A stretch of DNA of 64,000 nt from Chloroflexota bacterium (GCA_016191425.1 JACPOR010000021.1:84312-148311), one strand, 5' to 3'; shown: positions 43,366 to 45,162, counted from the first letter of the stretch. Numbers and translations are program-made. Notes: generated from the letters alone by a model not told the origin.

Positions 43366-45069
43366 ATGGCGAAGTATGTCTTTGTGACCGGAGGTGTGAC
43401 CTCATCACTCGGCAAGGGCATCACCGCCGCCAGCATCGGTCGACTGCTGAAGGCGCGTGGTCTCAAGGTCTCCATCCTCAAGCTGGATCCCTACATCAAC
43501 GTGGATCCCGGGACCATGTCCCCGTACCAGCACGGCGAGGTCTTCGTGACCGACGATGGAGCGGAGACGGACCTCGACCTTGGGCACTACGAGCGGTTCA
43601 TCGATGAGAACCTGTCCCAGCTCTCCAACGTGACCACCGGCCGCATCTATCAGGCCGTGATCGCCAAGGAGCGCCGCGGCGACTACCTCGGAGGCACGGT
43701 CCAGGTCATCCCGCACATCACCAACGAGATCAAGGAGCGGATCGGGCGGGTCGCCAAGGACGGGGATCCCGACTGCGTCATCGTCGAAGTCGGTGGCACC
43801 GTCGGCGACATCGAATCGCTGCCCTTCCTCGAGGCCATTCGCCAGATGCGCAAGGACGTCGGCAGAGCCAATGTCATGTACGTCCACGTCACGCTGCTGC
43901 CGGCCCTTGCCGCAACGGGAGAACTGAAGACAAAGCCCACGCAGCACTCCGTCAAGGAGCTGCGGGGGATCGGCATCCAGCCCGACGTCATCGTCCTGCG
44001 GTCCGATCAGGAGGTCTCGGACGAGATCCGCGAGAAGATCGCCCTGTTCACCGATGTCGACGTCGATGCGGTCATTCCCGCGGCCACGGCCGAGACGATC
44101 TACGAGGTGCCGCTGCAGTTCGAGGCACTCGGGCTCGGTCGGCTGATCGTCCGCGACCTCGGCCTCGGCGATCCGGACGCGGCCCCGGACCTCGATGGCT
44201 GGCGGGCACTGGTCGAGCGCATCAAGCAGCCAAAGCCGGTTCTGGAAATCGCCTTGGTCGGCAAGTACATCGAGCTTCCGGACGCCTATCTGTCCGTCAC
44301 GGAAGCGCTCCGCCATGCCGCCTGGGCGCATGGGGTGGACGCCACGGTTCGATGGGTCGATTCGGAAGCGCTGACGCGTGAGAACCTCCATGAGCGTCTC
44401 GATGGCGCAGCCGGTATCCTCGTTCCCGGCGGGTTCGGCCATCGCGGCATCGAGGGCAAGGTCCTCGCCGCCCACTTTGCTCGCGACCACAAGGTTCCCT
44501 ATCTGGGCCTGTGCCTGGGGCTGCAGTGCGCGGTGATCGAATTCGCCCGTGAGGTCATCGGGGCCGCCGACGTGAACTCGACCGAGTTCGACATGTTCAC
44601 CGACAACCCCGTCATCGACTTCATGCCGGACCAGCGGGACATGGAGGACAAGGGCGGCACCATGCGCCTCGGGATCTACCCGGCTCGCCTCACGCCGGGC
44701 TCCAAGGCCGCAGCCGTCTATGGCCAGGAAGTGATCTACGAGCGCCATCGCCATCGCTTCGAGGTCAACAACCGGTACCGGCAGTCACTTGAGGCCGCGG
44801 GAATGATCCTGTCCGGGCAATCACCCGACGGACGGCTCGTCGAGATCGTCGAGCTTCGGGACCACCCGTACTTCCTCGCCAGCCAGTTCCACCCGGAGTT
44901 CAAGAGTCGCCCCGAGCGTCCACACCCGCTGTTCGATGGCTTCGTCGCCGCATCCATCGCCGTGCAGGATGGGCGAGAGCCGGTGCTGACGGCCCGCACG
45001 GCCGCGGTCACTGGCACCGAACTGCGCGAGATGGTGGAGCCACGCGAGGCGGCCCGGCCCGCCGGCTGA
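43366..45069 (+). CDS. pyrG: CTP synthase
   Basis: [19 protein letters not shown], the GLCLGLQ glutaminase motif, 567 aa. Confidence 0.95.
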
Positions 45070-45162
45070 CCTCGTTCGGCCCGGGCGACCTCGTTCGGCC
45101 GGGTGACCTCGGCCCGCCGGCTGACCTCGTTCGGCCCGGCTGACCTCGTTCGGCCCGGGTGG
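45062..45162. repeat. 19-nt tandem repeat x5 (CCGGCTGACCTCGTTCGGC), first unit contains the pyrG stop
   Basis: Units at 45062..45080, 45081..45099, a shortened unit at 45100..45113, then 45117..45135 and 45136..45154, plus a partial. The TGA at 45067..45069 lies inside unit 1. Confidence 0.9.

Follow-up and report, generated by a model that had tools for sequence, protein, structure and literature searches.

The CTP synthase gene (pyrG) of a Limnocylindria bacterium (Chloroflexota) ends within a tandem repeat, its stop codon lying in the first unit of an array that runs on into the downstream spacer. This placement raises the question of whether a dedicated process duplicates gene 3' ends, or whether the array is one of many short duplications, of which some take in a stop codon. 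The former had been proposed in a first-pass annotation of the window (that is, the whole 64,000-nucleotide stretch of DNA that was analysed), where the same stop-included geometry was noted to recur at positions 54817 and 15628. The evidence assembled here favors the latter: with a probability of roughly 0.78, the pyrG array is an ordinary, locally born minisatellite that resulted from slipped-strand duplication and survivorship.

The window yielded 29 TRF rows with a score of at least 60, while five dinucleotide-preserving shuffles of it yielded none (best score 59), and the pyrG array, like other minisatellites, repeats a short unit head to tail to an extent that chance does not explain (Table 1). 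TRF reported this array in two ways, with a period of 19 (45062-45161; 5.4 copies, 84% match, score 137) and with a period of 55 (45055-45161; 1.9 copies, 94% match, score 193). The initial description of five 19-nt units is correct in that a 19-nt array of 5.4 TRF copies is present, but the array is better described as a 55-nt higher-order repeat in 1.9 copies. Direct comparison showed that both 55-nt copies start with CGGCCCGCCGGCTGA. Since the 55-nt period starts at 45055 and is the one matched at 94%, the latest event duplicated 55 nt, and with them the final 12 coding bases and the stop, once more. TGA triplets are found at 45067 (frame 0), 45104 (+1), 45122 (+1), and 45141 (+2), at offsets of 0, +37, +55, and +74, and the downstream TGAs do therefore fall in other frames, as had been noticed at the outset.

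Table 1. Positions of pyrG, the array at its 3' end, the adjoining spacer and gene, and the two other stop-including repeats of the window.
Feature	Position	Strand	Evidence or match
pyrG (CTP synthase), 567 aa	43366..45069	+	NCBIfam PRK05380 837.8 bits; TIGR00337 812 bits
pyrG stop codon TGA, within repeat unit a1	45067..45069	+	sequence; congener tails
19-nt array, units a1, a2, a3, b1, b2, b3; consensus CCGGCTGACCTCGTTCGGC	45062..45173	+	TRF; unit comparison
Unit a1 = CCGGCTGACCTCGTTCGGC, holds pyrG stop	45062-45080	+	19/19
Unit a2, TGA changed to CGA	45081-45099	+	17/19 identical to a1
Unit a3, truncated to 17 nt	45100-45116	+	unit-by-unit comparison
Unit b1	45117-45135	+	19/19
Unit b2	45136-45154	+	19/19
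Unit b3, degenerate	45155-45173	+	13/19
55-nt higher-order repeat, copy 1: last 12 coding nt of pyrG + TGA + units a1-a3	45055..45109	+	
55-nt higher-order repeat, copy 2: re-copied CGGCCCGCCGGCTGA (gene end + stop), out of frame	45110..45161	+	
Rest of 755-nt pyrG-tal spacer	45174..45824	.	ORF, Rfam, terminator, promoter scans
Transaldolase/FSA family gene, co-directional, downstream of pyrG	45825..46493	+	PF00923, 1.3e-58
17-nt array x4.3, unit GGTCGGCATGAGCCACC	54817..54889	+	TRF; TGA 54825-54827 in first unit
20-nt segment GTCGGGTCAG[C/T]CCGGGCGGA twice, 38 nt apart	15590..15647	-	copies at 15590, 15628

Comparison with congeners indicates where the repeated sequence came from. In the named genome collection, the pyrG loci most similar to this one belong to Chloroflexota MAGs labelled Candidatus Limnocylindria or Limnocylindrales. 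The family profile stops near residue 535 of the protein, and the ~32 amino acids beyond it form a lineage-variable tail ending in ...ARPAG-TGA. Among the pyrG tails of the 11 congeners or species that were compared, the terminus 'gccggc TGA' is common to the present genome (G000) and to G014, G003, and G009; to judge by this shared end, the TGA of G000 pyrG is orthologous to those of the congeners that carry it, and the stop is ancestral. The ...GCCGGC-TGA terminus is present in a single copy in congeners, from which it follows that the pyrG array is specific to this species and arose by local duplication of sequence already in place. This bears out the proposal that the terminus of pyrG, stop included, was tandemly duplicated downstream, with the TGA residing in unit a1. 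One 'TGA ccccctcgttcaggc', similar to the 3' part of the array unit, is found in G017. The closest relative (G007, 95% amino acid identity) has no array after pyrG and the sequence there is unrelated, and G009 carries different arrays at this locus. An exact-pattern scan of metagenome contigs and exact-protein look-ups retrieved no contigs of the same species. As a separate observation, the C-terminal tail outside the conserved enzyme varies greatly from species to species of the genus (protein lengths of 557-573 aa in L001-L012), and in G009 (L010) it contains an in-frame 9-nt repeat (GTCGAGGYG, three copies), with a different array of ~21 nt after the stop. A tRNA-Sec gene was also identified in the window at 6781-6873 (+) (Rfam, 65 bits), such that some TGA codons in the genome may encode Sec; no sign was found that this bears on pyrG.

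The spacer that separates pyrG from the transaldolase gene (45070-45824) contains no credible ORF and gave no meaningful family match in an Rfam search, and no terminator-like or promoter-like sites were found in 44800-46000. One stretch of it (45508-45650) aligns over 143 nt, at 74% identity, with the equivalent spacer in G014 (L003:3873-4012) and represents a conserved non-coding piece upstream of the transaldolase gene, itself with no Rfam match. In two congeners, G015 (L009) and G016 (L007), pyrG is directly followed by a gene for a 123-aa membrane protein that is absent from G000; the possibility that the spacer is a remnant of this gene was rejected, as tblastn of the G000 spacer and genome returned none.

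Both of the other loci that had been cited for the stop-included geometry are real. At 54817, the TGA in the first 17-nt unit ends a 57-aa ORF (54654-54827) that has a weak codon score and no Pfam match. At 15628, the gene-proximal of two 20-nt copies (19/20 identical) holds the stop (TCA, 15634-15636) of a minus-strand gene (15634-15963) that encodes a treble-clef zinc-finger protein (PF13451, 4e-19).

The significance of these three cases depends on how common arrays are in the genome at large. G000 is a MAG of a soil bacterium, comprising 2.38 Mb in 56 contigs with 68.8% G+C, and is 92% complete. TRF was applied to the whole assembly (score of at least 60, period of at least 7, overlapping rows merged). 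Genes (a total of 2,119, coding density 87%) were called with our own iterated codon log-likelihood model rather than taken from a curated annotation; start codons are accordingly approximate and long 'spacers' may hide unannotated genes. A total of 685 arrays were identified, amounting to 59.4 kb or 2.5% of G000, about 443 of them non-coding. An all-against-all comparison of units revealed that 642 of the 685 arrays have a unit found in none of the others and that the largest cluster consists of 4 arrays, and a dispersed mobile family (MIRU/REP-like) is ruled out by such locus-private units. The pyrG array is one of about 440 unrelated, non-coding, private arrays in a genome in which the rate of 15-25-nt duplication is unusually high. 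An exception to unit privacy is a 25-nt unit, TGCCCGGGGGTCGGCACGCAGGCAA, which has an internal palindrome and forms arrays at four loci outside the window (G000:C2:28947, C17:4273, C37:42031, and C54:72490); this unit may be a small dispersed REP-like element.

The 241 arrays within coding sequences have periods divisible by 3 in 95% of cases, as opposed to 37% of the 333 purely intergenic arrays, which touch no gene end. This contrast between genes and spacers is the mark of one mutational process on which selection has acted as a filter. The medians for non-coding arrays are a period of 20 nt, 3.2 copies, and a 90% match, and 14% of these arrays are perfect. Arrays are richer in G+C (75.6%) than the remaining spacers (68.9%); their sense-strand composition (A 12.4%, C 38.7%, G 36.9%, T 12.1%) reveals no strand bias genome-wide. 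They account for about 10% of spacer DNA in co-directional and divergent gaps and for 19% in convergent gaps. Their density in G000 is 2.87 per 10 kb, relative to 0.5-1.7 in four congeners that were sampled in stretches of 60 kb (two of the four being assembled in contigs of 0.6-1.9 Mb) and 0.17-0.35 in a small-genome sister family. Two candidate causes of this load were considered and rejected. In none of the 31 genomes of the order (G000 and 30 relatives) did canonical MutS1 (TIGR01070) score above the cut-off; the only MutS match there is a C-terminal, MutS2-like one of ~300 residues, and MutS1 is thus also absent from repeat-poor genomes; RecJ is present in all 31 genomes. Since repeat-poor relatives have the same MutS and RecJ repertoire, neither missing mismatch repair nor missing RecJ explains the excess in G000.

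To determine the expected frequency of stop inclusion, each non-coding array was collapsed to one unit plus partial flank, mirroring the way in which the observed arrays were classified, and was then placed with equal probability at every position in the collapsed spacers, overlaps with gene ends included. This is the genome-wide check of stop preference that the first-pass annotation itself had called for, and its outcome runs counter to the claim that a 3'-end mechanism, rather than random slippage, is at work: 80 arrays include a stop, where 79.3 are expected. By comparison, 37 arrays include a start (80.4 expected) and 333 are purely intergenic (301.4 expected). When each array was redistributed within its own gap, the counts for stops were 39 versus 39.9 in co-directional gaps (z -0.2) and 44 versus 49.6 in convergent gaps (z -1.0), and those for starts were 26 versus 39.9 in co-directional gaps (z -3.0) and 10 versus 16.2 in divergent gaps (z -1.7). 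Arrays that include only a stop are not enriched relative to arrays that touch neither end (p=0.45), and stricter filters on score, copy number, period, or gene confidence leave this result in place (p 0.17-0.40); for near-perfect and presumably young arrays, 25 stop-only cases compare with 15.9 expected (p=0.10). An excess of stop-only arrays (67 versus 42.9, 1.56x, p=0.001) appears only with a null window of one bare period, which understates the real extent of arrays. The data leave room for a weak stop-side enrichment, of 1.1-1.6x. Start-only arrays, on the other hand, are depleted (24 versus 55.9, p=6e-7), and this deficit is significant in every variant of the null. Stop inclusion is thus about as common as random seeding predicts, the departure from that prediction being a two-fold deficit at starts, and with stops near the uniform-seeding expectation no special gene-end mechanism is needed. 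Overlap with the coding sequence is limited to about 1.25 periods or less in 76 of the 82 stop-including arrays. In-frame arrays inside coding sequences are enriched to the same degree near both gene ends, with 39 in the first and 43 in the last decile as against about 20 in each middle decile.

A second departure from uniform placement concerns the orientation of the flanking genes. Convergent spacers contain 120 arrays where 67.1 are expected (1.8x, Poisson p=4e-9), an excess that holds across gene-confidence cut-offs from LLR 8 to 60, and those with a collapsed length below 50 nt contain 24 where 6.4 are expected, or about 4x the per-base chance. Arrays that bridge both stop codons of a convergent spacer number 4, versus 1.7 expected. 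For collapsed spacers of 25-50, 50-100, 100-200, and 200-400 nt, the rate of arrays per gap is 0.317, 0.320, 0.415, and 0.478 in convergent gaps, 0.075, 0.129, 0.195, and 0.322 in co-directional gaps, and 0.071, 0.130, 0.194, and 0.385 in divergent gaps. The data reject an additive model, with a fixed contribution to the rate from every 3' end (LRT 14.0, 4 df, p=0.007); what emerges is that spacers with any 5' end are constrained, rather than that each 3' end is hot. Within co-directional gaps, 63% of arrays are nearer to the stop than to the start (p=4e-4), and the tiniest of these gaps (1-25 nt) hold 3 arrays where 14.5 are expected. This distribution over gap types is what would be expected if promoters, 5' UTRs, ribosome-binding sites, and operon junctions were under purifying selection, and we infer that both the convergent bias and the bias toward the stop reflect such selection wherever a 5' region is present.

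Several other explanations of the stop-including geometry deserve consideration. A dedicated mechanism that seeds duplications at gene 3' ends, for example through termination-coupled events, would account for the presence of three stop-including arrays in one 64-kb window and of about 80 genome-wide, for the 1.56x stop-only excess obtained with the bare-period null, and for the proximity to the stop of arrays in co-directional gaps. Such a mechanism is very unlikely, however, as stop inclusion equals expectation, globally and within gaps, once the correct window is used, as co-directional gaps (one 3' end) equal divergent gaps (none) in every size class, contrary to additivity, as in-frame arrays within genes are equally common at 5' and 3' termini, and as about 333 arrays touch no gene end. 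It is also possible, although unlikely, that duplication is mutationally favored in promoter-less convergent spacers, for example by fork stalling or by topological stress from converging transcription. The magnitude of the convergent excess, its robustness to gene-confidence cut-offs, and a per-gap rate in convergent gaps that is nearly independent of spacer length are all compatible with this. On the same doubtful premise, part of the 3'-flank bias would be mechanistic, with stop-including arrays as its visible edge and not the result of survivorship alone, and very short convergent spacers would have been expanded by private minisatellites at four-fold over per-base chance. Relaxed constraint, however, predicts the same excess, given that convergent spacers are the only ones without a promoter, 5' UTR, or ribosome-binding site, and the units have neither hairpin propensity nor strand bias. 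The pyrG array itself lies in a co-directional gap and would not be a product of such a process.

A function for the array itself, as a 3'-UTR element that terminates transcription, stabilizes RNA, or provides back-up stops in three frames, might be suggested by its position directly after an essential gene and by the occurrence of TGAs in frames 0, +1, +1, and +2 within 75 nt. This is highly improbable, given that any TGA-bearing unit repeated every 19 nt will place stops in all three frames, that the closest congeners lack the array and have unrelated sequence in its place, and that units are private to each locus. Neither a terminator nor another structured RNA was found: the array lacks the G+C-rich stem-loop and U-tract of an intrinsic terminator, belongs to no Rfam family, and folds no better than its shuffles (z=+0.56), and trimers of the units of 401 non-coding arrays genome-wide likewise have no hairpin propensity (mean z +0.14). 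There is a very slim chance that misassembly produced the array or altered its copy number, considering that G000 is a 56-contig MAG and that assemblers tend to collapse or expand tandem repeats; against this, substitutions and a truncation distinguish the units and follow an orderly higher-order pattern, arrays of this kind also occur in congeners assembled in long contigs (1.9 Mb and 0.6 Mb), and the periods of in-gene arrays obey the multiple-of-3 rule. Finally, displaced copies of a gene 3' end are a hallmark of integrating elements, and the copies could in principle be att-site duplications left by an element that targets the 3' end of pyrG. Little if any credence can be given to this, since, unlike att duplications, the copies are strictly head-to-tail and contiguous with periods of 19-55 nt and no cargo between them, the 755-nt spacer has no integrase, recombinase, or credible ORF, and hundreds of arrays with unrelated units occur elsewhere in the genome.

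Under the preferred interpretation of an ordinary minisatellite, slipped-strand or template-switch mispairing as the DNA was replicated would first have duplicated a 19-nt stretch, which spans the final 5 coding bases of pyrG, the TGA, and the 11 bases that follow. A candidate microhomology for this step is the G+C-rich CGGCCCG(G), which is found both where units meet and in the flanking sequence upstream. A second round would later have duplicated a 55-nt block that takes in the final 12 coding nt with the TGA and about 2.5 units. The first copy preserves the reading frame and the stop, leaving the protein unchanged, and the event was thus probably neutral, whereas the same duplication a few bases further upstream would have caused a frameshift and been lost. 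An out-of-frame array that overlaps a coding sequence would survive only with the stop in its first unit, and the stop-included geometry would therefore be a survivorship filter. Arrays that take in a start codon, a ribosome-binding site, or a promoter are likely to have been purged by selection, which could explain the deficit on the 5' side.

The stop-in-unit geometry is already documented, both for the VNTRs of Yersinia pestis and for the repeats of Borgs. Of 88 VNTRs in Y. pestis, 16 extend over the end of an ORF; 6 of these are at starts and 10 at stops, the motif then containing the stop codon, and the authors noted that copy variation on the stop side affects the ORF less (PMC3689786). 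The arrays of G000 resemble these VNTRs (units of 7-21 nt) in being head-to-tail and mostly intergenic, in having in-ORF periods divisible by 3, and in comprising a subset with the stop inside the motif and fewer that take in a start (PMC3689786), but occur at a far higher density, with 685 arrays in 2.4 Mb. The repeats of Methanoperedens Borgs are similarly pervasive, locus-private, and recent, with units of about 20 nt that derive from local sequence, flanking partial repeats, periods that are divisible by 3 in genes and not between them, and few counterparts in related genomes (PMC9879509). Borg repeats are, however, perfect, while the pyrG array has a match of 84-94% and G000 arrays have the median match and low share of perfect copies given above; they are A-enriched on the coding strand, unlike the G+C-rich and strand-unbiased arrays of G000; and they reside on a linear archaeal extrachromosomal element as opposed to a bacterial chromosome (PMC9879509). 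The MIRUs of mycobacteria are also short intergenic tandem units whose ends overlap flanking stop and start codons. They constitute one dispersed, sequence-related, and apparently mobile family with a small ORF coupled to the downstream start (PMC12548453). G000 differs in that each array has its own unit and no coupling ORF, and no single dispersed unit family of the MIRU, REP, or BIME kind is present.

As a neutral by-product, the pyrG array would matter little in itself, and a stop in its first unit is no evidence of 3'-end machinery. The hypervariable C-terminal tail of pyrG in this genus is an example of how repeats are able to remodel protein ends. The placement statistics provide a readout of the insertion tolerance of a compact genome, in which starts are avoided two-fold, convergent spacers are favored two- to four-fold, and co-directional gaps equal divergent gaps. 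More broadly, G000 bears an extreme load of private minisatellites for a bacterial chromosome, several-fold above that of its congeners, and as such lends itself to the study of what determines how often 15-25-nt tandem duplications arise.
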